Translations under genes and position numbers: made by a program
Shown: piece after piece, positions 3,774 through 37,235 of the stretch
How positions within the stretch are numbered: the first letter of the stretch is position 1
Layout: every line of letters starts with the position of its first letter
From: Patescibacteria group bacterium
GTDB taxonomy: Bacteria > Patescibacteriota > Patescibacteriia > UBA9934
Direction of reading: 5' to 3'
Assembly (NCBI GenBank): GCA_041660165.1
Contig: JBAZWW010000002.1
Span: forward strand, 132,074 to 196,073
Length of the DNA: 64,000 nucleotides
The notes under the pieces: model-generated
Seen by the model: only the letters and a program-made list of their open reading frames with translations
Databases searched by the model: none
What the model was told of the DNA's origin: nothing

Positions 3774-3780
3774 GAATCGT

Positions 3781-3820
3781 GGGGGGTGCTCATGGGAAAC
3801 CATGAGCGCCCCTCTTTTAC
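3781..3820 (+). terminator. Intrinsic terminator after the M23 peptidase gene
   Basis: ggggggtgctcatgg-gaaa-ccatgagcgcccc stem followed by TCTTTT. Confidence 0.55.
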
Positions 3821-3844
3821 ATCTCACTCACTTTCTCACTCTCG

Positions 3845-3853
3845 TGTTATAAT
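3845..3853 (+). promoter_or_regulatory. Extended -10 element TGTTATAAT lying 9 nt before the ATG at 3863 (candidate leaderless transcript)
   Basis: Sequence motif only. Confidence 0.3.
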
Positions 3854-3862
3854 CACACCGCT

Positions 3863-6898: not shown

Positions 6899-6906
6899 GC
6901 TGGCGT

Positions 6907-8496: not shown

Positions 8497-8513
8497 CGTG
8501 GTAAAATACTGTC

Positions 8514-8954
8514 ATGCCCCGCAATCAATTCGTTGTCCCGCAGTTTCTTGACGTGGAGCCACGCATCATTGGCCCGATTACTGCTCGGCAATTTTTAATC
8601 ATGCTGACCGTCGTATTGGTAGACTTTGCCCTGTATCGCATTTTCATCAAGAGCATTCCAGGAATCCTGGTGACTGCCTTGCCGGTAACGCTTATTGGCT
8701 CGGTCTTTGCCTTTGGAAGAATGAACGGCCAGCCGTTTCATGTGATTGCTCTTAACGTTTTGCAGACCGTGCGCCGTCCGGCTAAGCGCGTGTGGGACAA
8801 GACCATGTCAGATATGGACCTGCGCGTGCTTATGAAAAAGGAGGAAGCTCCGCCATCCATCGTTCGCCACACCAAGGCCCCGCTTGAGCAGTCACGGTTG
8901 TCTGAACTGACACTCGTTGTAAATACCGGCGGTGTCTACAGCGGTGAGGAGTAA
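8514..8954 (+). CDS. Small two-TM membrane protein, PrgI/VirB3-like
   Basis: 146 aa with two hydrophobic helices near the N-terminus (FLIMLTVVLVDFALYRIF, ILVTALPVTLIGSVFAF). It lies immediately upstream of the VirB4 homologue, as VirB3/PrgI does. Confidence 0.4.
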   Translation: MPRNQFVVPQFLDVEPRIIGPITARQFLIMLTVVLVDFALYRIFIKSIPGILVTALPVTLIGSVFAFGRMNGQPFHVIALNVLQTVRRPAKRVWDKTMSDMDLRVLMKKEEAPPSIVRHTKAPLEQSRLSELTLVVNTGGVYSGEE

Positions 8955-8956
8955 TT

Positions 8957-9652
8957 ATGGCCAACGCAAAAAACAATCTAGCAAAACCAAAAGCGGGACC
9001 GCCAACCCAGCGGTATTTGGATATTGCGGAGATTAGGGAAGACTGCGTGGTCTTAAAAGACGGCACGCTCCGTTCAGTATTGCTTGTATCGAGTATTAAC
9101 TTTGCCCTCAAAAGCGAAGATGAACAGCAGGCCACCATTCAGGGGTACATGCAGTTTTTGAATGGGCTTGATCACCCTATCCAAATCACTATTCAGTCCC
9201 GCCGGATGAACATTGACGCCTACATGGGGAAGCTGAAGGCGCAGGAAGAAACGATTCCGAATGAACTGTTGCGCGGACAGATTAGGGACTACATGTCCTT
9301 CGTCAAAGAGCTGGTTGAGCTGGGTGAGATCATGCAGAAGCGGTTTTTCGTCATCATTCCGTATGATCCGGCTGAGGGCGGGAAACAGCACGGTTTTTTT
9401 CAGAAACTGTCGGCGGCTATTTCACCGGCCGCAATTATCAAGCTGAATGCCAAACAGTTCGGTGAGCGCAAAGAATATCTCATGCAACGCGTAGGAAATA
9501 TTGCCGGCGGTCTGCAGAGCATGGGGCTTCAGGCGATTATGCTTGATACACAGGGGCTGATTGAGCTGTATTACAATTCCTACAACCCTGACGTTTCTGA
9601 GGTGCAAAAATTGGCTCCCATTGAAAAAATCCAGGTAGAAACCCGTTTCTAG
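8957..9652 (+). CDS. VirB4/TraE-family ATPase, N-terminal domain fragment (231 aa)
   Basis: YLDIAEIREDCVVLKDGTLRSVLLVSSINFALKSEDEQ resembles the conserved N-terminal region of Gram-positive VirB4 (PrgJ/TraE-type). It ends TAG one nucleotide before the ATG of the next ORF, which is in a different frame. Confidence 0.6.
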   Translation: MANAKNNLAKPKAGPPTQRYLDIAEIREDCVVLKDGTLRSVLLVSSINFALKSEDEQQATIQGYMQFLNGLDHPIQITIQSRRMNIDAYMGKLKAQEETIPNELLRGQIRDYMSFVKELVELGEIMQKRFFVIIPYDPAEGGKQHGFFQKLSAAISPAAIIKLNAKQFGERKEYLMQRVGNIAGGLQSMGLQAIMLDTQGLIELYYNSYNPDVSEVQKLAPIEKIQVETRF

Positions 9653-9653
9653 T

Positions 9654-11567
9654 ATGGCTTTTAACATTGATGAACTGAAAAAACAGCAGACCGTAGCTCC
9701 CATCAGGAGCGAGCGGAAACTTTCCTCTGCGGAAATGAGATCCCAGGAAGAGCGGGCCACGCTTGAAGAAGAGCGCTCGTTCAGGAGAGGCACCGTGTCC
9801 GTTCGTGATCTTATTGCGCCGGCGGCCTTTGAAGTCCAGCCCACGCATTTGGTACTTGGCGATAGATTTGTCCGCACGCTTTTTGTGACTACTTATCCGC
9901 GCTACGTTGGTATTGGCTGGGGCGCGCCGGTTATTAACTTCAAAGGAACAATTGATATCGGGATGTTTGTGTATCCCGTGAAGTCAGAGGTGATCTTGAA
10001 GCAGTTGCGTGATAAAGTGGGACAGATTGAAGCGCAGATTGTGTCTGATAATGAATCCGGACGGCCTCGCGACCCAATTCAAGAAACGGCGCTCCGCGAC
10101 GTTGAGCAACTGCGCGATGACCTTACACAGGGCATTGAGCACTTTTTCCAATTTGCGTTTTATGTGACGCTCTACGCGTCAAGCAAGGTAGACCTTGATA
10201 AGCGGACAGAGGAAGTTGAGGCGATCTTTGGCGGAAAACTTATCTACAGCAAACGCGGGCTGTACCAGGCCGAGCAGGGCTTTAACTCCACGCTTCCTTT
10301 GTGTAATGACGAGCTGATGGTTACGTTCAACATGAACACTAGCCCCATCGCTAGTTCATTCCCATTTATTTCTTCCGATGTTTCAAGCGATAACGGCATT
10401 TTGTACGGCATCAACCGCCATAACAACTCGCTCATTTTGTTCGACCGCTTCTCATTGCAAAATGCGAATGCCGTGGTCTTTGCTACGTCTGGCGCAGGAA
10501 AAAGCTATGCGGTGAAGCTGGAAATCCTGCGTTCCATGATGATGGGCACGGATGTCATTGTTATTGACCCGGAAATGGAATACCGCCAGCTGTCTGATGC
10601 CGTGGGCGGGACGTACGTGAACGTTTCGCTGGCGTCTGAGGCGAAGATCAATCCCTTTGATCTGCCCAGGCCAAAGGGCGAGGAATCTTCCGTTGAGGAC
10701 ATTTTGCGTAGCGCCGTCATTACGATTAAGGGTTTGCTCCGCATCATGATTGGTAAACCCATGGGGGAGAAGTCAGTCCTTGGCTTCACGCCGGAAGAGG
10801 ATAGTTTGCTTGATCGAGCCCTTCTTGAAACGTACGCCAAGAAAGACATCACGCCTGATTTGCCAAGTTTGGCGGAGATTACCGATTATCCTATTCTGAA
10901 TGATCTGTTGGAAATTCTTGAGGGCATGCAGGGCGGTGAGAATTTGGTTGCTCGTCTGACAAAGTTTACAACGGGAACATTTTCCGGATTACTCAACTCA
11001 CCAACTACGGTGGAGATGCGCAATCAGCTGGTCATTTTTTCTGTGCGGGATCTTGAGGACGAATTGCGCGCCATGGCCATCTACACCATCGTCAACTACA
11101 TCTGGAACGTGGTGCGTTCAGAGCGGAAGAAGCGTTTGCTGACCATTGATGAAGCGTGGTGGCTCATGCAGAATGAGGACAGCGCCAAGTTCATTTTCGC
11201 CCTTGTGAAGCGCGCCCGCAAGTATTATCTTGGCGTGACCACCATCACGCAGGACGTGAATGACTTTTTGTCGAGTTCGTACGGCCAGGCGATTGTGACC
11301 AACTCCCAACTGCAGATTCTCATGAAGCAGTCATCGGCCGGCGTGGACGTAATTGCCAAGACGTTTAACCTGACGCAAAGCGAAAAATATCTGTTGCTTG
11401 AAGCCGGCGTGGGCGAGGGCATCTTCTTTGCCGGCCAGAAGCACGCGGCCATCAAGATTGTTGCTTCATACACGGAAGATCAAATCATTACCACGAATCC
11501 TGAGCAGTTACTTCAAATTGAGCGCGCCAAGGAAGAATTCCAGAAGTCCTTACAGCCACCCAAGTAA
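9654..11567 (+). CDS. VirB4/TraE-family conjugal-transfer-type ATPase, C-terminal ATPase part (637 aa)
   Basis: Walker A ATSGAGKSY, Walker B-like DVIVIDPE and LLTIDEAWWL, and the YPRYVGIGW region typical of VirB4. Confidence 0.75.
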   Translation: MAFNIDELKKQQTVAPIRSERKLSSAEMRSQEERATLEEERSFRRGTVSVRDLIAPAAFEVQPTHLVLGDRFVRTLFVTTYPRYVGIGWGAPVINFKGTIDIGMFVYPVKSEVILKQLRDKVGQIEAQIVSDNESGRPRDPIQETALRDVEQLRDDLTQGIEHFFQFAFYVTLYASSKVDLDKRTEEVEAIFGGKLIYSKRGLYQAEQGFNSTLPLCNDELMVTFNMNTSPIASSFPFISSDVSSDNGILYGINRHNNSLILFDRFSLQNANAVVFATSGAGKSYAVKLEILRSMMMGTDVIVIDPEMEYRQLSDAVGGTYVNVSLASEAKINPFDLPRPKGEESSVEDILRSAVITIKGLLRIMIGKPMGEKSVLGFTPEEDSLLDRALLETYAKKDITPDLPSLAEITDYPILNDLLEILEGMQGGENLVARLTKFTTGTFSGLLNSPTTVEMRNQLVIFSVRDLEDELRAMAIYTIVNYIWNVVRSERKKRLLTIDEAWWLMQNEDSAKFIFALVKRARKYYLGVTTITQDVNDFLSSSYGQAIVTNSQLQILMKQSSAGVDVIAKTFNLTQSEKYLLLEAGVGEGIFFAGQKHAAIKIVASYTEDQIITTNPEQLLQIERAKEEFQKSLQPPK

Positions 11568-11570
11568 GCT

Positions 11571-12128
11571 ATGAATAAGAAAGTGGAAATTGGGATTGCG
11601 GTTGGCATACTCGTCCTTCTGCTGATTGTGCTGGCGGTGCTTTTGCGCGCCAAACCGAATACGGTTAGCACGAAACCCGTGCAGGAGCAGATTCCAAACG
11701 CACAAACTAATCCCGGCAGTGTGCCGGTTGTTCCCGTGGTGGTCGCTCCCCCAGAACCGGCCGGACCGCAGACCACGGCCAGCATTTTTGTGGCCAGATT
11801 TGCCAGCTATTCATCTGAATCCGATTTTTCTAACGTGGCTGACGTGCTGGTTCTGGCGACTAAAACATTTCAGGCAAAACTGCAGGGCATTGCCCAGGAT
11901 CAGCGGACGCGAGATCTTTCCACCGCGTATTACGGCCTCTCCACAAAGGTAATTGGCAGTTCAGTTGTTCAAGAGGCAGAAACTTCTGCAGAGATCAAGC
12001 TTATGACCCAACAACAGGTATCTGTTGGCAGTCCGGGCAATACTACGGTGCAGTATAAGAACATTACTGTTGATCTGGTTAAAGAAGGAGATACATGGAA
12101 AGTGAACGGCTTTGCTTGGGAGAGCTAA
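11571..12128 (+). CDS. N-terminally anchored protein, possibly VirB8/PrgL-like with an NTF2-like domain
   Basis: Single N-terminal TM helix, a Pro-rich linker, and a ~130-aa C-terminal domain ending in ...EGDTWKVNGFAWES. The position after VirB4 matches prgL/virB8. Confidence 0.3.
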   Translation: MNKKVEIGIAVGILVLLLIVLAVLLRAKPNTVSTKPVQEQIPNAQTNPGSVPVVPVVVAPPEPAGPQTTASIFVARFASYSSESDFSNVADVLVLATKTFQAKLQGIAQDQRTRDLSTAYYGLSTKVIGSSVVQEAETSAEIKLMTQQQVSVGSPGNTTVQYKNITVDLVKEGDTWKVNGFAWES

Positions 12129-12736
12129 CCAGCTGGTTTTTAAACGCGGTCTTCCCGCGTTTTTGTCTGTCCTGCAAAACGGAAGGCGCTCTGCTTTGTC
12201 CGGCCTGTTTGCGTGCTTTTGATGATCGAGTATTCAGGGAGACTGACGGCCACCTGGCCCTCTTTGCGTACGGCAATCCGGCGATCCGAAATCTCATCCG
12301 CGCTTGGAAGTATGACTTTGATCAATCGGGATTCTCGACGCTCATGAAATTAGCTGAGCCAGGACACTCGACCATCAGAACTTTTATAGATAAGGCAGTG
12401 ATTATCCCGATACCATTATCTGATCTTCGAACAAGAGAGAGGGGCTTCAATCAGGCGGTCGTGCTTGGCGAGTGGGTTGCTGAGGTTTCGGGAAGTGAAA
12501 TGAGGGAGCTTTTAAAAAGGGGAGAAGCGAAGGGACACCAAGCTGAAAGAACTGAGGAGGAGAGAAAAAGAGCCATGGAGAAGAGTCCGTTCCTTTTAAA
12601 GGGGGGGAAGGTGCCAGAAAAGATTGTACTTGTTGATGATGTGTGGACAACAGGGTCAACCATGAGAGCGGCGGAGAGAACTTTGAAGGAAGGGGGAGTA
12701 AAAGAGGTGAAGTTTTTGACTATCGCGAAGGGGTAG
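12095..12736 (+). CDS. comFC: ComF-family phosphoribosyltransferase (ComFC)
   Basis: N-terminal CxxC...CxxC zinc finger (FCLSCKTEGALLCPAC) and the C-terminal PRTase motif KIVLVDDVWTTGSTM. The start is uncertain because it overlaps the previous gene. Confidence 0.8.
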   Translation: MESERLCLGELTSWFLNAVFPRFCLSCKTEGALLCPACLRAFDDRVFRETDGHLALFAYGNPAIRNLIRAWKYDFDQSGFSTLMKLAEPGHSTIRTFIDKAVIIPIPLSDLRTRERGFNQAVVLGEWVAEVSGSEMRELLKRGEAKGHQAERTEEERKRAMEKSPFLLKGGKVPEKIVLVDDVWTTGSTMRAAERTLKEGGVKEVKFLTIAKG

Positions 12737-14123: not shown

Positions 14124-14830
14124 AAAAAACAAAAATAGTGTACTCGCTTAAAGATGTTGGCTTCTCCTATGGGGAGAATGTTGTGCTTGACGGCGTCACG
14201 GCTGATATTCATGAAGGGGATTACTTGGGGATCATCGGCCCGAACGGGGGAGGCAAAACCACCATTTTGAAAATATTACTCGGGTTGCTTTCACCAAGTG
14301 AAGGCTCGGTCGAGTTGTTCGGCAAGTCCATTGCCCGCAATCAAGAGCGTGCCAGGGTGGGCTACGTTCCCCAGCGCGCTAATGCGGTGGGCGAGCATTT
14401 TCCAGCCACAGTTTTTGAAATTATTGAAAGCGGTCAGACGCCAATCTTAAAGAACGCTCGAACGCTAAAGCGAGCCATTGAAGCCGCCGGCGTGAAACAT
14501 TTGCTCGGTCGTCTCATCGGTTCGCTCTCAGGCGGGGAACGTCAGCGCGTGCTCATTGCCCGCGCCCTGGCGTGCGACCCGAAGGTGCTCATACTCGACG
14601 AGCCAACCAGTGCAGTTGATGCCAAAGGCCAGGAAAAGTTTTACGAATTCATTCATGAGATTAGGGAGAAACTTCATTTGACGGTGATCCTTGTTTCTCA
14701 CGACATGGACATTGTGGCCCATGAAGTGGACACCGTCTTGTGCTTGAATCGCCATCTGATTTGCCATGGTCCGGCGGAAGAAATTATGCATCATCCCCAT
14801 CTTATCCACGGCCATAAACCCGTTAAATAA
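14114..14830 (+). CDS. Metal ABC transporter ATP-binding protein (ZnuC-like)
   Basis: Walker A GPNGGGKTT, ABC signature LSGGERQRV, Walker B ILDEPTSAVD. Confidence 0.85.
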   Translation: MPVEKTKIVYSLKDVGFSYGENVVLDGVTADIHEGDYLGIIGPNGGGKTTILKILLGLLSPSEGSVELFGKSIARNQERARVGYVPQRANAVGEHFPATVFEIIESGQTPILKNARTLKRAIEAAGVKHLLGRLIGSLSGGERQRVLIARALACDPKVLILDEPTSAVDAKGQEKFYEFIHEIREKLHLTVILVSHDMDIVAHEVDTVLCLNRHLICHGPAEEIMHHPHLIHGHKPVK

Positions 14831-14831
14831 T

Positions 14832-15938
14832 ATGCGCAAATTTCTGCTTGCCCTGGTTTTGCTGACTGCGCTCACGGTTCCCTTTGTTGCTTTTGCGGGG
14901 AATAATTCAGTGTATGTGCGCGGAAAAGTACTGGATATTATTGCTGAAGGAGAACGCGATTTGGGCGATGGGAGTATCGACAGATATCAGACAGTATCGG
15001 TTGAGTTCCTGAGCGGAACAGAGGCGAAAAAAGTGGTGACGATTGAGTTTACCGCTATGAAGCCGGGGTTTGAGCAGAAAAAGCTATACAAAGGGGAGAC
15101 GATTGTGGTTGGACAGACAGATGATGTGCGGGGGAGAACATATTATGTGCAGGACGCATTTCGTTTGCCGATTGTGGCCGTGTTCCTCATCCTCTTTTTT
15201 GTCCTTGCGACCGTCTTCGGCCGGGGCCAGGGCGCGCGTTCAGTTTTAGGCCTGGGCGTCAGTTTGTTGATTCTCATGGTCTTTGTGGTCCCGCGTATTT
15301 TTGCTGGCGAGAGCCCGCTTCTTATTTGTGCCATCGGCTCATCTATCATTGCGGTTGTTTCTATTTTATTAGCTCACGGTTTGCACCGGCGGAGTTTTGT
15401 GGCCCTGCTGGCTACGCTTTTGGCTCTGGTGATGGCCTTCATTTTTGCTTCTCTAGCTGTTCACTTTACTACTCTTTCTGGCAGTGGAACTGAGGAGGCG
15501 GTGTTTTTACAGCTCAATTATCTCTCCGGTATTGATCTGCGGGGACTATTGCTTGGCGGTATGGTTATTGGCGCTCTTGGCGTGCTTGATGACGTTACAA
15601 CTGCTCAGGTGGCGGCCATTGAAGAGATTCATAATGCCGATGCATCGCTTGATGCGCGCGAGCTTTACGCGCGGGGTTCATCCGTTGGCCGTGAACACAT
15701 CGCCTCGCTCGTGAACACGCTAGCGCTCGCGTACGTGGGGGCTTCATTTCCCATCTTTCTGCTTTTTTCAGCGCCGGATAATCCACCGCTGTGGGTTCTC
15801 TTAAACAGCGAGCAGATCATGGAAGAAGCTGTTCGAGCACTCGTGGGAGGCTCCGCGCTCATCCTGGCCGTTCCTATTTCAACAGCCTTTGCCGCCTTTA
15901 TCTTCTCGCGTCTGCCAGCCAAGAAAAAATATGTTTGA
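14832..15938 (+). CDS. YibE/F-family integral membrane protein, inserted inside the metal transporter operon
   Basis: Signal peptide MRKFLLALVLLTALTVPFVAFA followed by about seven TM helices. The ORF track start at 14766 overlaps znuC, so an internal Met is used here. Confidence 0.55.
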   Translation: MRKFLLALVLLTALTVPFVAFAGNNSVYVRGKVLDIIAEGERDLGDGSIDRYQTVSVEFLSGTEAKKVVTIEFTAMKPGFEQKKLYKGETIVVGQTDDVRGRTYYVQDAFRLPIVAVFLILFFVLATVFGRGQGARSVLGLGVSLLILMVFVVPRIFAGESPLLICAIGSSIIAVVSILLAHGLHRRSFVALLATLLALVMAFIFASLAVHFTTLSGSGTEEAVFLQLNYLSGIDLRGLLLGGMVIGALGVLDDVTTAQVAAIEEIHNADASLDARELYARGSSVGREHIASLVNTLALAYVGASFPIFLLFSAPDNPPLWVLLNSEQIMEEAVRALVGGSALILAVPISTAFAAFIFSRLPAKKKYV

Positions 15939-16731: not shown

Positions 16732-16743
16732 TAATCACAAAAA

Positions 16744-16770
16744 CACGACCCGTAAGGGTCGCATTTTTGT
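16744..16770 (+). terminator. Intrinsic terminator after the permease gene
   Basis: cgacccgtaagggtcg hairpin followed by CATTTTTGT. Confidence 0.55.
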
Positions 16771-16918
16771 GGCGGAGGGAGAGAGATCCTAACTACGTGG
16801 GTCGCCCCACATACATTTTGTCTAATGTTAGCCAAGCCGTTTTCAGTTTTATGGCCACGACTTGCCGAGACTTTGTTAATCATATATAATCTCCCATAGT
16901 CATAGTATAAGATTATCT

Positions 16919-17971
16919 ATGGATCCACGAAGCAATCGAATCGGCAATATCCCCGAATCTGTCTGGTCCCTCATTAACCAAATCGACCATCTGAAGGGCC
17001 AATGGATCGGCGGTGCCAAACTGAACCCGCAAGCACTTGGTCGCTTGAAGCGGTCGGTTTTGGTGACATCGACTGGCGCGTCAACCCGTATCGAAGGATC
17101 GAAGCTGTCCGATGAGGATGTTGAGAAGTTCATGCGCGGTTTATCGCTACAAAAATTTACCGATCGGGATAAGCAGGAAGTGCAGGGGTACTTCGAGCTG
17201 CTCGAAAATATCTTTACCTCGTGGAAGCACATTCCGTTTACGGAGGGCGTTATCAAACAACTACACCGGGAATTATTGAAGTATGCGGACAAGGACGAGC
17301 GACATCGTGGAGAGTACAAAAAAATGGAGAACTCCGTGGAGATGTTCGATGAGTCAGGAAAGTCTGTCGGCATCATTTTTGAAACGACCCCCGCCTATCT
17401 CACGCCGAAGCGAATGGAGGAGCTCGTTGAGCGGACAGCGGGCGCGCTAAAGCAAGGCGAAAGTCATCCACTAGTCGTCATCGGAAACTTTCTTGTCGAA
17501 TTTCTTGCGATTCATCCGTTCCAAGATGGGAACGGGCGCCTTTCGCGCATTCTCACGAATTTACTACTGCTGAAGGCGGGATACGAATATGTGCCCTACG
17601 TCTCGCACGAGAAACTTGTCGAGGACAACAAGGCGGATTACTACGTCGCTCTCCGCAAGAGCCAAACTTCGCTCGGAACCGGGCGTGAGAATATCACGCC
17701 TTGGTTGGAGTTTTTTTTGACCATCTCGCTTGAACAGGCGCGACAAGCGATTGAGTTATTGTCGCACGAAAATATTGAGAAGATTCTCTCGCCCAAACAG
17801 CTCGCGGTGTGGCGGCATTTTGAACTCGTCCCTGAGGCGACTGCGGGTGATATCGCTAAGGCTACCGATGTTGCACGTCCGACCGTCTCACAAGCAATCG
17901 ATGTCTTGCTACGGTTGAAAAAGATTGAGCGTATCGGCCAAGGACGAACGACACGGTATCGGAAAGTGTAA
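16919..17971 (+). CDS. Fic-family protein (class II, with an N-terminal intramolecular inhibitory motif and a C-terminal wHTH-like tail)
   Basis: Canonical HPFQDGNGRLSR motif. An (S/T)xxxE(G/N) motif, STRIEG, is present near the N-terminus. A TTGCCG-N17-TATAAT promoter lies upstream. Confidence 0.85.
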   Translation: MDPRSNRIGNIPESVWSLINQIDHLKGQWIGGAKLNPQALGRLKRSVLVTSTGASTRIEGSKLSDEDVEKFMRGLSLQKFTDRDKQEVQGYFELLENIFTSWKHIPFTEGVIKQLHRELLKYADKDERHRGEYKKMENSVEMFDESGKSVGIIFETTPAYLTPKRMEELVERTAGALKQGESHPLVVIGNFLVEFLAIHPFQDGNGRLSRILTNLLLLKAGYEYVPYVSHEKLVEDNKADYYVALRKSQTSLGTGRENITPWLEFFLTISLEQARQAIELLSHENIEKILSPKQLAVWRHFELVPEATAGDIAKATDVARPTVSQAIDVLLRLKKIERIGQGRTTRYRKV

Positions 17972-17980: not shown

Positions 17981-18268
17981 ATGGGCAAACCCGTCAAAGC
18001 GCTTCATGCACTGAATTGGTACTACGGAAATATTTGTAGTCGCCAATGCCCGGAAGAGAAACAGCGTGAACATTATGAGCAGATGCGAGAGATCATTAAA
18101 GACCACGAGAATTTCATGATCACACACAAGATGTTCGTCAAAGTTATGCAGGAGAAGCACTGTGTATGCGAATCGTCAAACCTCCAACAGTCGCATCGAA
18201 GCTTCTGGAAACTCGATCATTCTGGCTGTCAGGATTTCTATCGTCATCTGTATGATCTCAGCCACTGA
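17981..18268 (+). CDS. Hypothetical small Cys/His-rich protein (95 aa)
   Basis: ORF lying between the Fic and helicase genes, overlapping the helicase start by 17 nt. The coding call is uncertain. Confidence 0.25.
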   Translation: MGKPVKALHALNWYYGNICSRQCPEEKQREHYEQMREIIKDHENFMITHKMFVKVMQEKHCVCESSNLQQSHRSFWKLDHSGCQDFYRHLYDLSH

Positions 18269-20408
18269 AGATCAGTTGAACTTGTACCTCTCCTTATTTC
18301 GTGGTCGAACGGACGTCTACGCCAGACGATGGGAGAAGGAAGGAAAGTCTGGTTACTCGCCGGCGTATGATTTTGATTGGAACGAATTCCTCGCACATAA
18401 GCGCCGTGGCGGAACAATGACAACCTTCGAAAAGAAGACGGCGATTCCGCTCACTCCAGATATCATCCGTAAGCACCTTGTCGGTCAACACGTCGTCGGT
18501 GTCTATCCGCTCCTTGAAAATAACTCTTCGTATTTTATCGCGGCAGATTTTGATGGCGACCGAGCATTTGATGAAGCAAAGAGTCTCATTTCGGTCTGTC
18601 AAGAAATCGGACTCCCTGCATATCTCGAACGCTCGCGTTCCGGGAACGGCGCGCACGTTTGGTTGTTCTTCGAAGAGCAATATCCTGCCGCGCGAAGTCG
18701 GGTGATCATGCTCGAGTGTGTCCGTCGCGCACTTGGCTTGTCTGCCTTCGATAAAGAAGTATCGTTTGATCGTCTATTTCCAAACCAAGATGCTCAGAGC
18801 GGTAAGGGATTCGGGAATTTGATCGCCCTGCCTTTGCAGGGAATATCCGTCGAACGTAGCAATGCCATTTTTATCGATCCTGACAATTTGGTCGCGTTTC
18901 CCGACCAATGGGATTTTCTTGCGAAGGTGAAAAGAATTTCGCCCCACGATCTTGATGCCGCATTCGCTCAGCTCACCGACCAATCAACCAATGAAGTAAC
19001 GACAGACTCAAAGAACCTCGTTTTGATACTTGGCTCAGGCATTCGTCTACAGAACAATTTGCTCGATAAGGCCACGGTCAACTTTATCCGGGAAGAGTTG
19101 AATTTTTCAAATTTGGATTACTGGCTAAAGAAGCGACTCGGCAAAAGTGTTTACCAGACGGAAAAGTTTTTCCGTTTGATTGAGGAAGTTGGCGAACATA
19201 TCCTCCTGCCGCGAGGTTTTTTGACGAAGCTGACCGGTCATCTCCGTACCCGAGGCATACCATTTCTGATTCGTGATGAACGCACTGCCTTGCCCGATGC
19301 CACGTTTACCTCGACGATTGAGCTACGACCGGAACAGACGGACGCCGTCAATCTCGCTATGGCGGTCGAGCAAGGCGTGATCGTTGCCCCTCCAGGCAGC
19401 GGAAAGACCATTATGGGACTCGAACTCATTGCACGTCGTGGACAACCCGCATTGATCCTCACGCACCGTAAGCAGATCATGGATCAGTGGGTCGATCGGA
19501 TTCAGTCTTTTCTTGGAATCGCCAAGGCGCACATTGGACGAATCGATGGGGTCAAGAAATCCGTTGGCGACAAGGTGACCGTCGCCATGATGCAGAGTCT
19601 CGCCCGACGGGAGGATCTGTCGGATCTGCGAGGCAAGTTCGGACTGGTCATCGTCGACGAGTGTCATCACATTCCCGCAAAAACGTTTCGCAAGGTTATA
19701 TCTTCCATCGACGCAAAATATTGCTACGGACTCACCGCAACGCCCGAACGGAAGCATAAAGACGAAAAGCTGATCTATCTGTTTATTGGAGACATCGTCA
19801 CCGAATTGCACGAAGAACACGCGAAAGAATCCGCTCCATCGAAATATCGCCCGGTCGAACCAACAAAGAACGTGATCGTCCGAGCCACGCAACTCGCCGT
19901 TCCGTTCTCTTTCACAGCCGACAACTATCAGATTCTTGCCCGCATTGTTTCTTTCGACCAAGCGCGGAACCGGTTGGTCCTTGAGGACATCAAACGTTCC
20001 GTGGCGGCGGGATGGAAGACGCTCGTTCTCAGCGAACGCAAGGAGCATCTTGAAGTACTTAGCATGTATCTCAAAGGAAGTTGCGAAGCTATCCTGGTGA
20101 CGGGTGACGATTCTGCCGTTTCGCGTAAAAGTAAATTCGCACAAATCGCGTCGGGACATTATCAGGTCATATTGGCGACGGGCCAGCTCGTCGGGGAAGG
20201 AATGGACGTTCCTGATATCCAGGCCGTCGTCTTGGCGTTTCCCCTCGCTTTCGAAGGCAAGCTCGCCCAGTACATTGGTCGTATTCGTGGGGCGCAAAAG
20301 ACAGTCTGCGATTACCATGATGGTAGGACGCCGTTCCTCGATCGTCAATTTAAAAAGCGGAAGAAGTTTTACGAGAAGAGTGGATTTCGGATAACCGAAG
20401 AGAGCTGA
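18252..20408 (+). CDS. Fusion protein: N-terminal archaeo-eukaryotic-primase-like (PrimPol) domain plus C-terminal superfamily-2 DEAD/DEAH helicase
   Basis: AEP motifs AADFDGD (DxD), SGNGAHVWLFF (sGxGxH) and GNLIALPLQG. Helicase motifs PPGSGKT (I), DECHH (II), TATPER (III), a helicase-C region with QYIGRIRGAQ, and an arginine finger. The start is placed at an internal Met (MISATEDQ...); the ORF track starts at 18162. Confidence 0.7.
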   Translation: MISATEDQLNLYLSLFRGRTDVYARRWEKEGKSGYSPAYDFDWNEFLAHKRRGGTMTTFEKKTAIPLTPDIIRKHLVGQHVVGVYPLLENNSSYFIAADFDGDRAFDEAKSLISVCQEIGLPAYLERSRSGNGAHVWLFFEEQYPAARSRVIMLECVRRALGLSAFDKEVSFDRLFPNQDAQSGKGFGNLIALPLQGISVERSNAIFIDPDNLVAFPDQWDFLAKVKRISPHDLDAAFAQLTDQSTNEVTTDSKNLVLILGSGIRLQNNLLDKATVNFIREELNFSNLDYWLKKRLGKSVYQTEKFFRLIEEVGEHILLPRGFLTKLTGHLRTRGIPFLIRDERTALPDATFTSTIELRPEQTDAVNLAMAVEQGVIVAPPGSGKTIMGLELIARRGQPALILTHRKQIMDQWVDRIQSFLGIAKAHIGRIDGVKKSVGDKVTVAMMQSLARREDLSDLRGKFGLVIVDECHHIPAKTFRKVISSIDAKYCYGLTATPERKHKDEKLIYLFIGDIVTELHEEHAKESAPSKYRPVEPTKNVIVRATQLAVPFSFTADNYQILARIVSFDQARNRLVLEDIKRSVAAGWKTLVLSERKEHLEVLSMYLKGSCEAILVTGDDSAVSRKSKFAQIASGHYQVILATGQLVGEGMDVPDIQAVVLAFPLAFEGKLAQYIGRIRGAQKTVCDYHDGRTPFLDRQFKKRKKFYEKSGFRITEES

Positions 20409-20420: not shown

Positions 20421-20446
20421 AAAATGACTCCGAAAGGAGTCATTTT
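20421..20446. terminator. Perfect hairpin AAAATGACTCC-GAAA-GGAGTCATTTT (bidirectional terminator) after the helicase gene
   Basis: Read from the sequence. Confidence 0.6.
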
Positions 20447-20517
20447 GGCATGGGGACAATGCCTTATGGGTCGCCCCGTCGCCATCGGCACACGGGTTGC
20501 ACGATAAGAAATTGTCC

Positions 20518-20606
20518 TGGCGGAGGGGGCGAGATTCGAACTCGCGGAGGCTATTAACCTCGACGGTTTTCAAGACCGTTACCTTAAACCGCTCGGTCAC
20601 CCCTCC
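20518..20606 (-). tRNA. tRNA-Ser (anticodon UGA), with long variable arm and encoded CCA
   Basis: Minus-strand fold: acceptor GGAGGGG/CCCCTCC, anticodon loop cuUGAaa, long variable arm, T-loop TTCGAAT, 3'-GCCA. Confidence 0.8.
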
Positions 20607-20674
20607 CGTTTATCAGCTACGGCTGCGTGGGGCATTCTACGCGGTTTTGTTCAGTTTGTCTATGTGCACATGCT

Positions 20675-20703
20675 ATACAAAAATACGACCTTTACGGGTC
20701 GTA
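20675..20703 (-). terminator. Minus-strand intrinsic terminator downstream of tRNA-Ser(GCU)
   Basis: ACGACC-tttac-GGGTCGT stem followed by a U-tract on the minus strand. Confidence 0.45.
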
Positions 20704-20709
20704 TCTTTG

Positions 20710-20799
20710 TGGCGGAGAGGAGAGGATTCGAACCTCCGGTACCCTTTCAGGTACGCAGGTTTAGCAAACCTGTGCCTTAAGCCACTCGGCCACCTCTCC
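20710..20799 (-). tRNA. tRNA-Ser (anticodon GCU), with long variable arm and encoded CCA
   Basis: Minus-strand fold: acceptor GGAGAGG, anticodon loop ttGCTaa, long variable arm, T-loop TTCGAAT. Confidence 0.8.
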
Positions 20800-21057
20800 G
20801 GGTGGGTGGAAAGCTCCTAAAATCGTTTTCTGCTGTGTCGGCTCTCCGGTCCTCGTTCAACGTACCTGCTGGTACGTCTCACTTCGGTCCTCGCGCCTCC
20901 TTGCATAAAGCGATTTTATTAGCTTTCCAAATGCACGCGCCGTTCGCCTTGGCCTCGCTACGCTCGGCCAGCACGAAACGGTTAAATTCGACTCTGATAA
21001 GAACGCGGGTACACTACCTGAATCGGGAGTCTTTTTCAAGCTCGTCCATGTTATACT

Positions 21058-22264: not shown

Positions 22265-23107
22265 ATGAAAAATAATCCCAACTCGTTAGCTATTTTTGAG
22301 GATTTCAATATTCGTCGAATTTATGACGAGAAAAAGGAGATCTGGTACTTTTCGGTGATCGATATCGTTGCCGCTTTAACTGAGCAAACGAATTATAATC
22401 GAGCTAAAAGTTACTGGACTACGCTGAAAAATCGACTAAAGTTAGAAGGAAGTGAAGTGGTCACAAAATGTGACCAGTTGAAAATGCTGGCTCAAGACGG
22501 AAAAATGCGAGAGACGGACGTGGCTGACGTGGAGTCGTTATTACGCATTATTCAGTCCGTTCCCTCGAAAAAAGCCGAACCAATCAAACTCTGGTTGGCG
22601 AAGGTCGGATATGAGCGAATGCAAGAAATGACTGATCCAGAGAGGGCCCTGGATCGCAGTCGGGGGTATTGGCAAAAACAAGGTAGAAGTGAGAAGTGGA
22701 TTCAGCAACGGATGACGGGACAAGAGACGAGAAATAAATTAACAGATTATTGGAGCGATCATGGCGTAGAACAGGGCGAGGAGTTCGCTATACTCACAAA
22801 CATAATTCACGAGGAGTGGACGGACTTGTCAGTGAAGAATCATAAAAGTTTGAAAGGATTAAGAACGCAAAACCTTCGCGATCACATGAGTGAAGAAGAG
22901 CTGATTTTTACGGCTCTCGCAGAGCTCTCAACTAGAAGAATAGCGGAAACTGACGAAGCTGAGGGATTAGAAGAAAATAAGATTCCGGCCAAGAAAGGCG
23001 GAAAGATTGCCAGGGATGCACGACTGGCTCTTGAAATAAGAACGGGAAAATCAGTAATAACCGGAGAAAACTTTCTACCAAAAAAGAAGTCTCCAAAATT
23101 GTTATGA
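22265..23107 (+). CDS. DinD/BRO-N-like DNA-damage-inducible-protein-D-family protein
   Basis: Architecture and several conserved stretches resemble E. coli DinD, which has a Bro-N-like N-terminal region and a basic C-terminus. Confidence 0.5.
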   Translation: MKNNPNSLAIFEDFNIRRIYDEKKEIWYFSVIDIVAALTEQTNYNRAKSYWTTLKNRLKLEGSEVVTKCDQLKMLAQDGKMRETDVADVESLLRIIQSVPSKKAEPIKLWLAKVGYERMQEMTDPERALDRSRGYWQKQGRSEKWIQQRMTGQETRNKLTDYWSDHGVEQGEEFAILTNIIHEEWTDLSVKNHKSLKGLRTQNLRDHMSEEELIFTALAELSTRRIAETDEAEGLEENKIPAKKGGKIARDARLALEIRTGKSVITGENFLPKKKSPKLL

Positions 23108-25851: not shown

Positions 25852-27552
25852 CTAGAAACTGAGCGTGTGGCCGGTGATGGGGAGGGCTTGGATGTACGTG
25901 CCGTTGATGTTGGTTGCGCCTGTGTCAGCGTCATCCCAGAGGATGGCGGGGAACACAATGGTATTTGCGGTCAGCTCGCTTGGAATAGAAGCCTGGATGA
26001 TGTCGTCTGTGCTGGCGCCGGACGTATCAAGGAAAAGTGCGAACGTGGTAGCGCTTGAGCTTTGCGGGAGAATGACGTCCGAAATGCCAAGCGCGGCGAA
26101 TCCTACTGGTGCTGTACTTCTGCCACAGGGAGTTCCATCCACCGCTAGGAATGCGGCATCACTGAACATTTCAGTCACACCATTTGAAAGATTTTTTAGC
26201 TGCCACCGTGCTCCAGAGCCAAGTTTGCCAGCTCCACATCTGTTCCAGCCTGTTCCTCCAGCATCTGAGGAGCTCAGTTGGATCATGACGCGGTTTAATT
26301 TCACGAAACCTCCCGGAGCCACGTTCACGTTAAAGCGGAGCACCTCAGCAAAGGCACCGGGTTGGGTTGGTGCTGTGGTGCCGGACGGGGAGGACGTAGA
26401 GAGCGTGAAGGCCGGGCGAGTCTTCCTGAGTACCATGGTGTTCGCATGAAGGTTGGATTCCAGCCACGCACCGGTTATGACGCGTCCGGAGGTGCGTGCC
26501 GTAGCTATAAAGCCCCCGGTTGTACCAAAGTCCAGATCAAATCCGAAGGTCATGTTTGAACGAGCAGGGCTGGTGGCCGTAATGGGAGCAGTATCAACAG
26601 CCACATCCACAACTGAACTGCTTGACGCGCCGGCCGGTACGTACATGTTAAGGCCAGTGAACTTGGCCGAGTGGTTTGAGAGCATGGCGCTCCTCACTAC
26701 CGTTGCGCCAAGCTGATCGAGATATTTGATTTTAACCGCCTGAATGGCCTGGTCATCACCCACATTTTTCAAGGTGAGGGTTTGGATGGTGAACGGCTCG
26801 TTCGTAGCGGTGAAAACGTAGGAGGCGGTGTTAACAAGTGGGGTGCCGGCTAGCGCGATATCTGCGCTCGGTGTGGTGCCGGAAAGTGAAGCGCTCAGCG
26901 TACCTGAATCACGGAGGGTGATGGAAACAGACGGTGGAACGTTTACGCCCGGGTCCGTTGCTCCGCCTATCTGCACTCGGCTTCCGCTCATTTGCCGTCC
27001 CGTGTAATCCTTTGCGGAAACGCTGGCATCATTCTTGAGCGAGAAAGCGTAAATGTCTGGATTGGTTCCGTCCACGGGAACGCTGGCAAAGGAACAGTTC
27101 ACGCTGTAATTGGCGCTCGTGTTGGCTTTGAGGATAATTGGCAGGCCTGTGAATGAGACGTTACCTAGGCGGTCCACAACTCGGCCCTGGCCAAGCGGAT
27201 GGCCTTGGCTGTCATTCAGAGCGCAGAGGCTGATGTGATCTGCCGGAGCAACGTTGTTTTCAATACTCGCAAATGATCCGTCAGTATCCGCGGTTACGGC
27301 AAACGTCAGGCGGTCAACGCGCACTGCCTGGTTTTGTGCCTGGAGGTTTACCAGGAAGACCGGTTCAAGCGTGGCGCCAGCCACGGTGGCGTGCGAGGTG
27401 AGCGCACTGCCAGTTTTGATAACCAGGATTGAGCCCGTGTTATTCGCCGCGATCATGAATCCGGCCGCTGCCGCTAGCCCGGCCGCCGCCATGATGGAAA
27501 GTCCCACTAACGTATTGGTTGTCGTTTGGACAACAGTGGATGATTTTGTCAT
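25852..27552 (-). CDS. Secreted Thr/Ser/Gly/Ala-rich surface protein, paralog 1 of 5
   Basis: Conserved N-terminal signal ...LAGLAAAAGF(M/L/V)IA, a beta-rich low-complexity body, and conserved C-terminal ...G(G/H)TL(V/S)(F/Y). Confidence 0.8.
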   Translation of the reverse strand: MTKSSTVVQTTTNTLVGLSIMAAAGLAAAAGFMIAANNTGSILVIKTGSALTSHATVAGATLEPVFLVNLQAQNQAVRVDRLTFAVTADTDGSFASIENNVAPADHISLCALNDSQGHPLGQGRVVDRLGNVSFTGLPIILKANTSANYSVNCSFASVPVDGTNPDIYAFSLKNDASVSAKDYTGRQMSGSRVQIGGATDPGVNVPPSVSITLRDSGTLSASLSGTTPSADIALAGTPLVNTASYVFTATNEPFTIQTLTLKNVGDDQAIQAVKIKYLDQLGATVVRSAMLSNHSAKFTGLNMYVPAGASSSSVVDVAVDTAPITATSPARSNMTFGFDLDFGTTGGFIATARTSGRVITGAWLESNLHANTMVLRKTRPAFTLSTSSPSGTTAPTQPGAFAEVLRFNVNVAPGGFVKLNRVMIQLSSSDAGGTGWNRCGAGKLGSGARWQLKNLSNGVTEMFSDAAFLAVDGTPCGRSTAPVGFAALGISDVILPQSSSATTFALFLDTSGASTDDIIQASIPSELTANTIVFPAILWDDADTGATNINGTYIQALPITGHTLSF

Positions 27553-27561
27553 ATTTTGCGC

Positions 27562-29283
27562 TTAGTATACCAGCGTTCCGCCAACGATGCTTGGGGAAGT
27601 AATGTATTGGCCGTCAATGTTCGTGACGCCGGTATCCGCATCTGTCCAGCGGATGGAGTCGTTATTTGTGGCGTTGGCTGTCAGCTCGTCTACAATTTCA
27701 AGACGTATTGTGTCATCTTGAGAACTGCTGGCGCCGGTGCTGTCAAACCAGACTGAGAGCGCCTTTGCCCCAGAAGATGAGGTAGGAATGGCTAAGAGAC
27801 CGCCAGTGGCTTGATTGAAGGTCACGATGGCATATGTAGCGATGCCTGGATTTGAAGCGTTACACGCTGTTCCGTCAGCGGACAGGATGCGCCAGTTGCT
27901 GGCATCGCCAAGAGCAGTGCCCGTACTGAAGTCACGAATTTGCCAGCGGTTTGCATCACCCCCAAAGTTACTGCAAGCGTTCCAGCCCCGGGCCTCATTG
28001 CTCGTGCTCATGAGGCGGAACATGATTTGCTGGAGCGCCACCGGACCGCCGGGAGCTGTCCAAATGTTAAACCTAAGGACCTCGCTCCGGCCTGGAACTG
28101 AGGCTCCGGATGGCGAGGCAGAGGAGAGCGAAAGATAGGGGCGAGTTTTTCTGAGGGTGAGCGTGTCTGCATGGATGCTTGCACCCATTGAGGACTCAGT
28201 GACAGTGTGTCCAGAGGTTTGAGCCACGGCCTTGAAGCCGTTAGCGGTGGTGAAATCAAGATCTAGTCCGAAGATCATGCCTGAGCGAGCCGAACCGGTT
28301 GCAGTAATTGGCGCGGTGTCTACAGCTACGTCGATAACAGCTTTGTTAGAGGCGCCGGCCGGTACATAGGCGTTAAGACCGGTGAATTTCGCGAGGTGAT
28401 TTGAGAGAGTGGCCGTTTTCACAACTTGCGCGCCAAGCTGGTCAAGGTATTTGATCTTGACTGTTTGCACGGCCGTATCATCGCCAGTGTTTTTGAGGGT
28501 GAGCGTCTGGATGATGAACGGTTCGTTCGTGGCGCTGAAGGCGTAGGAGACAGTGTTGACGAGCGGGGTGCCGGCCAGGGCGATGCCTGTGCCAGGGGTG
28601 GAGTAAGGACCGGCACTGAGCGTCCCTCCGTCCCGGACCGTCACCGCAATGTTAGGCGGGAAGTTGACGCCGGGATCATTTGGACCGCCAATATTGATGC
28701 GGTTTCCGGGAAGAATCGCTCCTCGATCAGTGTGTGCATCAACGCTAGCATCGGTTTTGATGGAGAAGGCGTAAATGTCTGCATTAGCGCCATCCGTTGG
28801 GACATTGGCAAAGGTGCACCAGAGCCTGAACGTTCGGGTGACATTGGCTGGAATTGTTTGGGCAAGATTGGTAAAGGAAATATTTCCCTGATTATCAGGA
28901 ATCTGGCCTTGGCCAACTAATGCGCCTTGGGCGTTGTTCAAGACGCAGGAGCTGAGATGGTCACCTGCGTTAATGTTATTTTCAATGCTCGAAAAAGTTC
29001 CGTCAGTATCGGCCGTGGCCGTGAACATCAGACGGTTAACGGTGACCGGTTTGTTCTGCGCCAGCAGACTGAAGCTAAGAACCTGTTCAAATGAACCAGC
29101 CACGGTGGAGTGCGAAGCTGGATTGGGCAACGCTTTAATGACCAGGACAGGTAGTGTATTCCTGGAAGCGATCAGAAACCCCGCCGCCGCCGCTAAACCA
29201 GCGAGAGCGACTATCCCGATGCCGATTTTAGTCGAGGTTTTTGTTTGAGTTTGTGTCTGTGTAGCCGTTGATAGGTTGTCCAT
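27562..29283 (-). CDS. Secreted surface protein, paralog 2 of 5
   Basis: N-terminus MDNLSTATQTQTQTKTSTKIGIGIVALAGLAAAAGFLIA; about 75% identity to paralog 1 over the central region. Confidence 0.8.
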   Translation of the reverse strand: MDNLSTATQTQTQTKTSTKIGIGIVALAGLAAAAGFLIASRNTLPVLVIKALPNPASHSTVAGSFEQVLSFSLLAQNKPVTVNRLMFTATADTDGTFSSIENNINAGDHLSSCVLNNAQGALVGQGQIPDNQGNISFTNLAQTIPANVTRTFRLWCTFANVPTDGANADIYAFSIKTDASVDAHTDRGAILPGNRINIGGPNDPGVNFPPNIAVTVRDGGTLSAGPYSTPGTGIALAGTPLVNTVSYAFSATNEPFIIQTLTLKNTGDDTAVQTVKIKYLDQLGAQVVKTATLSNHLAKFTGLNAYVPAGASNKAVIDVAVDTAPITATGSARSGMIFGLDLDFTTANGFKAVAQTSGHTVTESSMGASIHADTLTLRKTRPYLSLSSASPSGASVPGRSEVLRFNIWTAPGGPVALQQIMFRLMSTSNEARGWNACSNFGGDANRWQIRDFSTGTALGDASNWRILSADGTACNASNPGIATYAIVTFNQATGGLLAIPTSSSGAKALSVWFDSTGASSSQDDTIRLEIVDELTANATNNDSIRWTDADTGVTNIDGQYITSPSIVGGTLVY

Positions 29284-29291
29284 AGATTTTT

Positions 29292-31343: not shown

Positions 31344-31350
31344 ATTTGTA

Positions 31351-33087: not shown

Positions 33088-33092
33088 AGATT

Positions 33093-34823: not shown

Positions 34824-34826
34824 AGG

Positions 34827-35822: not shown

Positions 35823-35870
35823 AAGCCAAGTTATTCCTGGCTATTATAACATCAAAAAATGCCCGCCTAG

Positions 35871-37232: not shown

Positions 37233-37235
37233 AAT

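Follow-up and report, generated by a model that had tools for sequence, protein, structure and literature searches.

A distant member of the IS-excision enhancer family of PrimPol-helicases on a tRNA-bracketed Fic cassette in a Patescibacteria genome

[quoted passage not shown] The 718-aa protein is a distant member of the family of IEE, the insertion sequence (IS)-excision enhancer of enterohaemorrhagic E. coli O157:H7 (ECs1305), also called the 'Z1568-like' AEP family (Kusumoto et al. 2011; Calvo et al. 2023, PMC9943667) and represented in Pfam by AEP-TOTE. Both of its catalytic centers are intact. The explanation that we favor, with a probability of roughly 0.55, is that it is an IEE-type polymerase that processes DNA breaks or intermediates, not a replicative primase-helicase, and that it resides on a tRNA-sited cassette, usually together with a Fic gene.

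RESULTS

The 718-aa protein matches IEE over its whole length

Translation of the window gave a stop-free frame of 718 codons at 18252-20408 on the plus strand. A mechanical ORF list contained a longer version of this gene beginning with a GTG at 18162; ATG 18252 is the likely start because homologs are 715 to 725 aa long and align from residues 1-5. Every string quoted from this frame in a preliminary description of the DNA was found in it (DFDGD at residues 99-103, SGNGAHVWLFF at 130-140, GNLIALPLQG at 188-197, GSGKT at 382-386, DECHH at 469-473, and TATPER at 495-500). A Pfam scan assigned the N-terminal region to PF22548 (AEP-TOTE; residues 8-235, E = 3.7e-78, far beyond chance) and the C-terminal region to ResIII (356-500, E = 1e-27) and Helicase_C (583-678, E = 7e-8), with DEAD also matching the helicase core. 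The PF22548 match runs counter to the refuting outcome named in the preliminary description, an N-terminal region that fails to match AEP profiles. The same scan returned neither a PriCT nor a zinc-binding domain. The gene and its domains are as follows.

18252-20408, plus strand: IEE-family primase-polymerase (PrimPol)-helicase, 718 aa, identified by Pfam, homologs, the AlphaFold2 (AF2) model, and alignment with IEE.
18273-18956, plus strand: AEP (Prim-Pol) catalytic domain, residues 8-235, PF22548, with D99/D101, H135, D173, and Y85.
19014-19286, plus strand: middle alpha/beta domain, residues ~255-345, separating the AEP domain from the ATPase core, from the AF2 model.
19317-20285, plus strand: XPB-like SF2 ATPase/helicase core, residues 356-678, with ResIII, DEAD, Helicase_C, and XPB matches.

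Structure prediction agreed with this layout, upholding the claim that an AEP domain is joined to a complete SF2 core. The AF2 model (mean predicted local distance difference test score [pLDDT] of 82) comprises the AEP domain, the middle alpha/beta domain (pLDDT 60-92; collinear with IEE residues ~321-420), and two RecA-like domains. With this model, Foldseek retrieved XPB of archaea and eukaryotes (E = 1.7e-22) as well as the Prim-Pol domain of MpCAPP, the CRISPR-associated primase-polymerase (CAPP) of Marinitoga (7p9j and 7nqe; target-normalized template modeling [TM] score of 0.77-0.79). A PDB sequence search likewise matched the AEP part to the MpCAPP structures 7nqd/7nqf (E ~ 1e-8) and the C-terminal part to XPBII (E = 2.6e-21). 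Among NCBIfam models, XPB ranked first for the C-terminal half (E = 4.8e-28), far below its equivalog cutoff. By these matches, the C-terminal core resembles XPB and is not an XPB ortholog. The SF2 ATPases XPB (Rad25/Ssl2) and bacterial RadD are the best sequence and fold matches for residues ~330-700; however, the XPB core is not fused to a polymerase, and no Bax1 or TFIIH-type partners are present at the window locus.

BLASTP aligned the protein with E. coli O157 IEE end to end (33% identity; E = 3e-122; residues 2-714 versus 44-777), with the same order of AEP, middle domain, and SF2 ATPase over the whole length. The aspartates D99/D101 of the DxD motif, H135, D173, and Y85 align with IEE D142/D144, H178, D216, and Y128, respectively, whereas K385 (Walker A Lys) aligns with K451 and R677 (Arg finger) with R735 in the ATPase. 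All ten published IEE residues (Y128, D142, D144, S171, Q175, G176, H178, D216, K451, and R735; PMC9943667) were verified in the 786-aa homolog of E. coli O157:H7 EDL933. In IEE, Y128 replaces the ribose-2'-OH-binding histidine of AEPs that prefer rNTPs (PMC9943667), and the alignment of Y85 with this residue suggests that the window protein prefers dNTPs. Both genes are on horizontally transferred DNA. The two proteins differ at the N terminus, where IEE has an extra 43-residue segment that the window protein lacks. Their settings also differ: IEE lies in a large P4-like integrative island (AlpA, YfjI, and a Gp2-like gene) of a host rich in IS3-family elements, whereas the window gene lies in a minimal Fic cassette at a tRNA, with no transposase seen in the window.

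Conservation among relatives extends to both active sites. Among 54 aligned full-length homologs, which share 53-87% identity with the window protein, D99, D101, H135, Y85, and D180 were invariant and D173 was at least 90% conserved. The SF2 motifs (Q362, GSGKT 382-386, DECH 469-472, TAT 495-497, GEG-D 648-652, and QxxGR 673-677) were similarly retained: Q362, GxGKT 382-386 including K385, D469-E-C, H473, TAT 495-497, GEG-D 648-652, and Q673/G676/R677 were invariant. Three AEP motifs had been proposed from the sequence. Two of these, DFDGD and SGNGAHVWLFF, hold as catalytic motifs, but GNLIALPLQG does not; motif C (hD) is VSFD173, within VSFD173 RLFPNQD180, where D173 is the equivalent of IEE D216, and GNLIALPLQG is a conserved block particular to the family, just downstream of it.

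AEP-SF2 fusions form a large, named family

IEE itself matches PF22548 (E = 1.7e-98) with the same ResIII and Helicase_C layout, and RefSeq names it 'TOTE conflict system archaeo-eukaryotic primase domain-containing protein', TOTE standing for TPR, OB, TBP, Effector (Aravind, Iyer and Burroughs 2022, as summarized in PMC12458937). 'AEP-TOTE', 'Z1568-like AEP', and 'IEE AEP domain' are therefore one family. IEE matches were found in 1,730 of 5,426 complete E. coli genomes. A protein 100% identical to that of the window occurs in a Patescibacteria metagenome-assembled genome (MAG), and close relatives belong mostly to lineages of the Candidate Phyla Radiation (CPR).

The fusion is not uncommon, contrary to what had first been supposed. 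The same architecture was present in all 120 of the 120 best full-length homologs, and an exhaustive HMMER scan with the AEP region alone, clustered at 50% identity, yielded 6,465 clusters at E ≤ 1e-3, 2,769 at E ≤ 1e-10, and 618 at E ≤ 1e-30; about one-third of the best 150 AEP-region clusters were at least 680 aa long. A word-indexed search with the AEP region returned mostly truncated copies and is uninformative on architectural diversity. Full-length homologs (33-36% identity) were found in 98 plasmid records, with the 786-aa protein of E. coli O157:H7 EDL933 among these matches, whereas 50,697 phage genomes contained none and gave helicase-only matches alone. The architecture has been described and biochemically characterized for IEE (PMC9943667), and Zabrady et al. 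2021 termed it 'CAPP-Helicase' (PMC8211822), reporting that among non-CRISPR relatives of CAPP_A, which are on mobile genetic elements (MGEs), the helicase-carrying architecture is the most prevalent (PMC8211822). AEP-SF2 fusions thus constitute a sizeable, named family in which one member has been studied experimentally. The enzyme architecture found at this locus is accordingly not new; the window protein is a distant member of a known and characterized family in a new host group.

Gene neighborhoods were compared in 20 genome loci found via the protein and in four short metagenome contigs (L025-L028; loci are designated by L numbers below). Variation within the family was seen in several of these loci. 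Bacteroidota versions are longer (1,026-1,126 aa; L012 10106-13183 and L013 4491-7871), have no upstream Fic gene, and carry a C-terminal extension of ~340-400 aa that has no Pfam match. The frame of the IEE-like gene is broken in L016 (2981-5053), L019 (5734-6857), and L017 (10001-12112); these are either pseudogenes or assembly errors, and L017, from Peribacteria, possibly uses an alternative genetic code. In some E. coli strains, an IS3-family transposase disrupts iee itself, although IEE aids the excision of elements of this very class (hits H36-H38).

The gene belongs to a cassette bracketed by tRNA-Ser sequences

The IEE-like gene is the last of three co-directional ORFs between repeats that contain tRNA-Ser sequence. 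The remaining features of this cassette and its borders are as follows.

16737-16769, minus strand: copy of the hairpin and flank that follow tRNA-Ser(gct), with its stem at 16746-16761; a terminator-like site after znuB.
16770-16866, minus strand: degraded full-length tRNA-Ser(gct)-like relic, the left bracket, which aligns over its whole length with 20710-20799.
16862-16890, plus strand: putative promoter-like site TTGCCG-17-TATAAT upstream of Fic, from a consensus scan only (10/12 matches).
16919-17971, plus strand: Fic protein with a winged helix-turn-helix (wHTH), 350 aa, Pfam Fic, DIP2311-like_C, and MarR_2.
17981-18268, plus strand: small Cys-rich ORF, 95 aa, an optional accessory; its last 17 nt overlap the beginning of the IEE-like gene.
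20421-20446, no strand assigned: hairpin AAAATGACTCC-GAAA-GGAGTCATTTT, 13 nt past the stop codon of the IEE-like gene, read directly from the sequence and unreported by a pattern scan.
20518-20606, minus strand: tRNA-Ser(tga), 3' end toward the cassette, called by ARAGORN (Rfam tRNA, 57.1 bits).
20677-20799, minus strand: tRNA-Ser(gct) (20710-20799) and its downstream hairpin (20677-20709), the right bracket, a repeat of 16737-16866.

The repeats of the window enclose Fic, the small ORF, the IEE-like gene, and tRNA-Ser(tga); within them, direct repeat D3 pairs the 16737 region with 20677-20717 (41 nt, 85% identical). ARAGORN did not call the relic at 16770-16866, nor did it match the Rfam tRNA model at E ≤ 1, and because neither recognizes it we consider it non-functional. 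The hairpin at 20421-20446 is likely to be a bidirectional terminator between the operon and the convergent tRNA-Ser. The Rfam model 'sX4' also matched both tRNA-Ser genes with their flanks (20466-20618 and 20668-20807, minus strand; 44.5 and 24.2 bits versus a gathering threshold of 70), most likely an artifact of tRNA-like content in the model.

Related loci have comparable borders. In L007, a pair of tRNA-Trp(cca) sequences (8369-8442 and 12206-12277, 79% identical) encloses exactly Fic, the small ORF, and the IEE-like gene. In L016, the unit is enclosed by a 33-nt repeat (1696-1728 and 5369-5401; 3,673-nt spacing), although a short two-copy repeat of this kind could be due to chance. The bracketing repeats are spaced ~3.7-3.9 kb apart in the window, L007, and L016, and no integrase was found at these three bracketed loci. 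Scars of tRNA fragments are present in L004 and L005. In L005, L006, L016, L019, and L027/28, the 3' end of the IEE-like gene adjoins a tRNA (Ser, Trp, or Arg) on the minus strand. Contig L025 has the same tRNA relic at its left end and a tRNA half at its right end.

The cassette is also far more conserved than housekeeping genes near it, which indicates horizontal spread. Within the same genome pairs, the IEE-like proteins are 47-70% and the Fic proteins 73-77% identical, compared to 38-47% for RecG and 19-42% for a membrane protein designated c3. Between the window and L004, for example, identities are 69.5% (IEE-like), 77% (Fic), 41% (RecG), and 38% (c3), and between the window and L011 they are 47% (IEE-like), 73% (Fic), and 38% (RecG). 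These data point to a dispensable cassette of ~3.7 kb that spreads horizontally into tRNA loci without an integrase of its own. In the literature searched, we did not find a description of a CPR-wide Fic/IEE-like cassette, of its tRNA-bracketed structure, or of its presence without visible IS elements.

Some other interpretations of the borders were discarded. The left repeat is a full-length degraded tRNA with its hairpin instead of a short attachment (att) core at a tRNA. The cassette is not a compositional island, its GC fraction being ~0.50, like that of the flanks. Read-through of the operon into the antisense tRNA as a primer-binding site was dropped because the hairpin at 20421-20446 separates the stop codon from the tRNA.

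A Fic-wHTH gene is a frequent but facultative partner

The active-site motif of the Fic protein, HPFQDGNGRLSR, is intact (residues 199-210) and is kept in every aligned copy. Fic AMPylases with a cis inhibitory helix are recognized by an HxFx(D/E)GNGRxxR active site and by an inhibitory-helix motif, (S/T)xxxE(G/N), located in the same chain on the N-terminal side of the Fic core. The window protein has S55-T-R-I-E59-G in its N-terminal part, as do all related copies that cover the region; this motif is of the inhibitory-helix type and presumably inhibitory in role. A winged HTH forms the C-terminal part. PDB matches include the Fido protein 8uqu (E = 5.8e-39) and SoFic.

A Fic gene lies directly upstream of the IEE-like gene and in the same direction in 12 of the 20 genome loci as well as in L025-L028. 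One of the 12, L003, encodes a different Fic subtype with a Fic_N domain. The small Cys-rich ORF matches no known family and was detected, at 49-75% identity, only in L002, L005, L007, and L026; it is absent from L025 and most other loci. Neighbors beyond Fic, the small ORF, and the IEE-like gene differ among loci.

In more distant relatives, the upstream slot is occupied by RhuM, by Bro-N (L014), by a 160-aa protein of unknown family, by a serine recombinase (Pantoea), by a Gp2-like protein in a P4-like island (E. coli), or by HigB with a regulator (Acinetobacter). The RhuM partner is not a cryptic Fic homolog, since BLASTP detected no similarity between the two. A Bro-N protein of 280 aa is also encoded in the window (22265-23107, plus strand), ~1.9 kb downstream of the cassette; its homolog in L014 (9147-9986, 61% identical) is the one directly upstream of the IEE-like gene, in the usual position of Fic.

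The pairing was also viewed from the side of Fic. The 120 best matches of the Fic protein were all at least 75% identical to it, and at least 12 of these 120 were on contigs apparently shared with IEE-like matches. Three long contigs chosen as absent from the IEE-like list had Fic alone or Fic followed by an ORF resembling a SWIM zinc finger protein, with no IEE-like remnant. In L034 (7128-7841) and L035 (2036-2821), this ORF, of 237-261 aa with a SWIM-zinc-finger-like CxC...CxH, replaces the IEE-like gene after Fic; both loci are syntenic with L004 (RecG, Fic, X, PIF1). Strict coupling of Fic and the IEE-like gene is ruled out by Fic occurring alone or with the SWIM-like ORF. The pairing is thus frequent but facultative in both directions, and the unequal rates at which the two genes diverge indicate that they do not always travel together. 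Fic may regulate the IEE-like gene, through DNA binding by its wHTH or through AMPylation after release of the inhibitory helix. Alternatively, Fic may occupy this insertion hotspot as an independent passenger. Our literature search found no paper tying Fic to PrimPol, in defense or otherwise.

An IEE-type break-processing polymerase is the favored explanation

Experimental evidence on function comes only from IEE, whose AEP domain polymerizes DNA in a Mn2+-dependent, error-prone manner and tolerates dislocation of primer and template. The full-length enzyme can join 3' overhangs that share 4 bp of homology or more, a microhomology-mediated end-joining (MMEJ) reaction for which both domains are required; the helicase-like domain has DNA-dependent ATPase activity but no unwinding activity, and it stabilizes the enzyme on duplex (PMC9943667). 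In vivo, IEE promotes the transposase-dependent excision of IS3-type elements (10.1101/2023.06.07.543989). Since the domain order and all catalytic residues are retained, we infer that the CPR protein shares this core chemistry. [quoted passage not shown] The enzyme would then likely process DNA breaks or replication intermediates arising from mobile elements, as in IS excision, or other double-strand breaks, in a host that would have few end-joining options. It would travel as a ~3.7-kb integrase-less cassette at tRNA genes, usually with an autoinhibited Fic-wHTH protein. The activities are known only for E. coli IEE, at 33% identity; for the CPR protein we infer them, along with its role in vivo and the coupling between Fic and the IEE-like gene.

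The preliminary description had considered the protein either a replication initiator of a cryptic element or a defense or repair effector. The second proposal is the closer of the two because the characterized homolog is an end-joining, IS-excising polymerase. Other low-fidelity polymerases offer parallels. AgaPP, a PrimPol associated with prokaryotic Argonaute (pAgo) whose partner is a PriCT-DUF3987 helicase, similarly combines a low-fidelity polymerase with a helicase-like ATPase, and MMEJ, translesion synthesis, and terminal transferase activities are reported for AgaPP and human DNA polymerase theta (PMC11724360). In the AgaPP system, however, an SF3-type helicase exists as a protein of its own, and the two together have been proposed to replicate an MGE (PMC11724360). 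Polymerase theta is an A-family polymerase, so the resemblance is one of analogy, not homology.

Several points weigh against this explanation. At 33% identity, and with the 43-residue N-terminal extension of IEE missing, the activities of the window protein may differ from those of IEE. The one function shown for IEE in vivo needs a transposase, yet no transposase or IS was found among the ~50 ORFs scanned in the window. The same AEP family has been placed in conflict and defense contexts (TOTE and CAPP), and the upstream partners (Fic, RhuM, Bro-N, HigB, and resolvase) are typical conflict or MGE genes, which fit defense at least as well. Finally, the facultative pairing and unequal divergence of Fic and the IEE-like gene weaken the case for their coupling.

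Defense is the main rival

The main rival, which carries about half the weight of the favored explanation and is put forward tentatively, is a two- or three-gene system directed against phages or MGEs, in which the Fic-wHTH protein would be a sensor, regulator, or toxin and the PrimPol-helicase an effector acting on invader DNA. The window protein would then be a helicase-fused offshoot of the TOTE/CAPP AEP family. Its Pfam family is named for a conflict system, a PADLOC model for cas-associated PrimPol matches it at E = 1.3e-66, and the non-CRISPR relatives of CAPP_A are mostly helicase-fused and on MGEs (PMC8211822). Two further observations, the nature of the variable upstream partners and the population behavior of the cassette, keep this rival alive: the slot holds typical conflict genes (Fic, a second Fic subtype, RhuM, Bro-N, and HigB with a regulator), and the cassette is small, horizontally spread, located at tRNA hotspots, and sometimes pseudogenized (L016 and L019). 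The intact active site and conserved inhibitory motif of Fic are also consistent with such a system.

Other results argue against defense. Membership of the AEP domain in the Pfam family named after TOTE is a matter of the domain family only, not of the system. Pfam detected no TPR, OB/CSD, or TBP match within ~10 kb of the gene or in the related loci that carry precomputed Pfam annotation, and a canonical TOTE system, as that system is defined in the summary in PMC12458937, is ruled out by the absence of the TPR-OB (TPR-CSD/S1) and TBP genes here and in all related loci examined. A CRISPR search of the 64-kb window gave one trivial tandem repeat only and no array, and no cas1 or cas2 is present at the locus. 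No PADLOC system model matched beyond the generic PrimPol and helicase models. The sole characterized full-length homolog acts in IS excision and end-joining, not in phage defense, and Fic also occurs alone or with another partner, with no Fic-PrimPol defense paper found.

Replication, self-mobilization, and housekeeping are improbable

That the protein serves some small, cryptic integrative element or plasmid as its replicase (initiator primase-helicase), in the manner of pRN1 ORF904 or D5-type proteins, is improbable, and the claim that it might be a replication initiator found little support. Primase-helicase fusions are classical MGE replicases; the insertion of ~3.7 kb is discrete and flanked by tRNA duplicates, as would result from Campbell-style integration of a circle with a tRNA on it; and several metagenome contigs consist of the module alone. 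However, these module-only contigs (L025-L028) lack terminal overlaps and inverted terminal repeats, which rules out a circular episome, and the tRNA-like repeats at the ends of L025 explain the assembly breaks. No integrase, Rep, or partition gene is conserved beside the IEE-like gene in the loci examined, and the absence of full-length matches in the 50,697 phages dismisses a phage replicase. On plasmids, the gene is cargo beside true replication genes (e.g., IncFII RepA; pDSJ06). Like pRN1 ORF904, vaccinia D5, and P4 alpha, the window protein has an AEP domain fused N-terminally to an NTPase, but those proteins use hexameric SF3 motors with PriCT or zinc modules, whereas the motor here is an XPB-like, monomeric-type SF2, not a hexameric SF3, DnaB, or MCM, and no PriCT or zinc finger module was detected in the protein. 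The failure of the IEE ATPase to unwind DNA is a further argument against a replicative helicase.

A more speculative proposal, and also an improbable one, is that the PrimPol-helicase itself moves the cassette at tRNA genes by microhomology-guided strand switching or end-joining, with Fic-wHTH as regulator or addiction factor, or else that the pair is a new, CPR-specific two-gene defense system. PrimPol-mediated insertion and excision would explain the tRNA duplicates and relics at the borders; if true, it would be a new PrimPol-based mode of DNA mobility.

Quite unlikely is a vertically inherited CPR housekeeping enzyme for repair or replication restart, which would combine repriming by the PrimPol with an XPB-type translocase. 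The gene does recur near RecG, RecQ, PIF1, and a conserved tRNA-Ser/c3/tRNA-Arg(gcg) region in several CPR genomes, its base composition is the same as that of the flanks, and it is very common in Patescibacteria. Vertical inheritance is contradicted by the far greater conservation of the module than of RecG or c3 in the same genome pairs, by its location at different tRNA sites (Ser, Trp, and Arg) in different genomes, by its absence from syntenic loci (L034 versus L004), and by fragmented copies (L016 and L019). Near-identical relatives are also assigned to other phyla, though mis-binning of MAGs is possible.

For this locus, a CAPP acting in spacer acquisition is effectively refuted: the protein shares a homologous AEP catalytic core with CAPP_A (E ~ 1e-8 by sequence; TM 0.77-0.79 by fold) and matches the PADLOC model (E = 1.3e-66) and NCBIfam PrimPol_Msp (E = 2.2e-26), but the PrimPol_Msp score of 92.5 is far under the cutoff of 200, MpCAPP has TPR and PriCT-like domains in place of the helicase, the locus has neither an array in the 64-kb window nor cas genes, and the 350-aa and 95-aa ORFs, although of cas1/cas2 size, are by Pfam Fic and an unrelated small protein.

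The cassette lies in an ordinary CPR chromosome

The window is ordinary CPR chromosome, with znuA, znuC, a YibE/F gene, znuB, RecG, RadA, ClpB, PheST, RseP, and HtpX. The gene for the YibE/F-family membrane protein (14766-15938, plus strand) is inside the znuA-znuC-znuB zinc-transporter row. Recombination helicases recur beside the IEE-like gene elsewhere: RecQ with a C-terminal HTH_40 follows it directly in L010 (5385-7241) and L011 (12127-13938; ends overlapping in L011), which are of Paceibacteria type; a PIF1 helicase with HTH_40 adjoins it in L004 (6653-8365, minus strand); and RecG is within 10 kb of it in four loci.

Farther downstream in the window, a 1,044-aa protein (53006-56140, plus strand) carries N6_Mtase, Eco57I-methylase, and Type_ISP_C domains, as in a Type ISP/IIG-like restriction-modification enzyme, and is accompanied by a DUF2779 protein and a 1,240-aa ORF (56353-57993 and 57863-61585, both minus strand); the region 53006-61585 may be a defense islet. 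Two clusters of large ORFs, mostly without Pfam matches (1941-12736 and 25852-40710), include an M23 peptidase, a TraG/VirB4-like P-loop ATPase (9654-11567), a ComF-like phosphoribosyltransferase, and a protein with a type IV secretion system (T4SS)-pilin domain (37236-38798). They may encode systems for secretion, competence, or the cell surface of kinds that are typical of CPR.

DISCUSSION

By sequence, PrimPol-helicases of the IEE type are abundant in the ultra-small genomes of CPR/Patescibacteria, where they move in the form of a minimal tRNA cassette, usually with a conserved and apparently active Fic-wHTH protein. The locus is not categorically new, but the Fic/IEE-like cassette is worth a note. 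The label that Pfam and RefSeq give to IEE, TOTE, provides a cross-reference that joins the IEE, CAPP, and TOTE literatures on one AEP family. Given that no IS was seen nearby, one may ask if 'IS excision' represents the ancestral role of this family, or its general one. A wider activity, in end-joining or against MGEs, may be the role instead, and AMPylation by Fic might control this activity.

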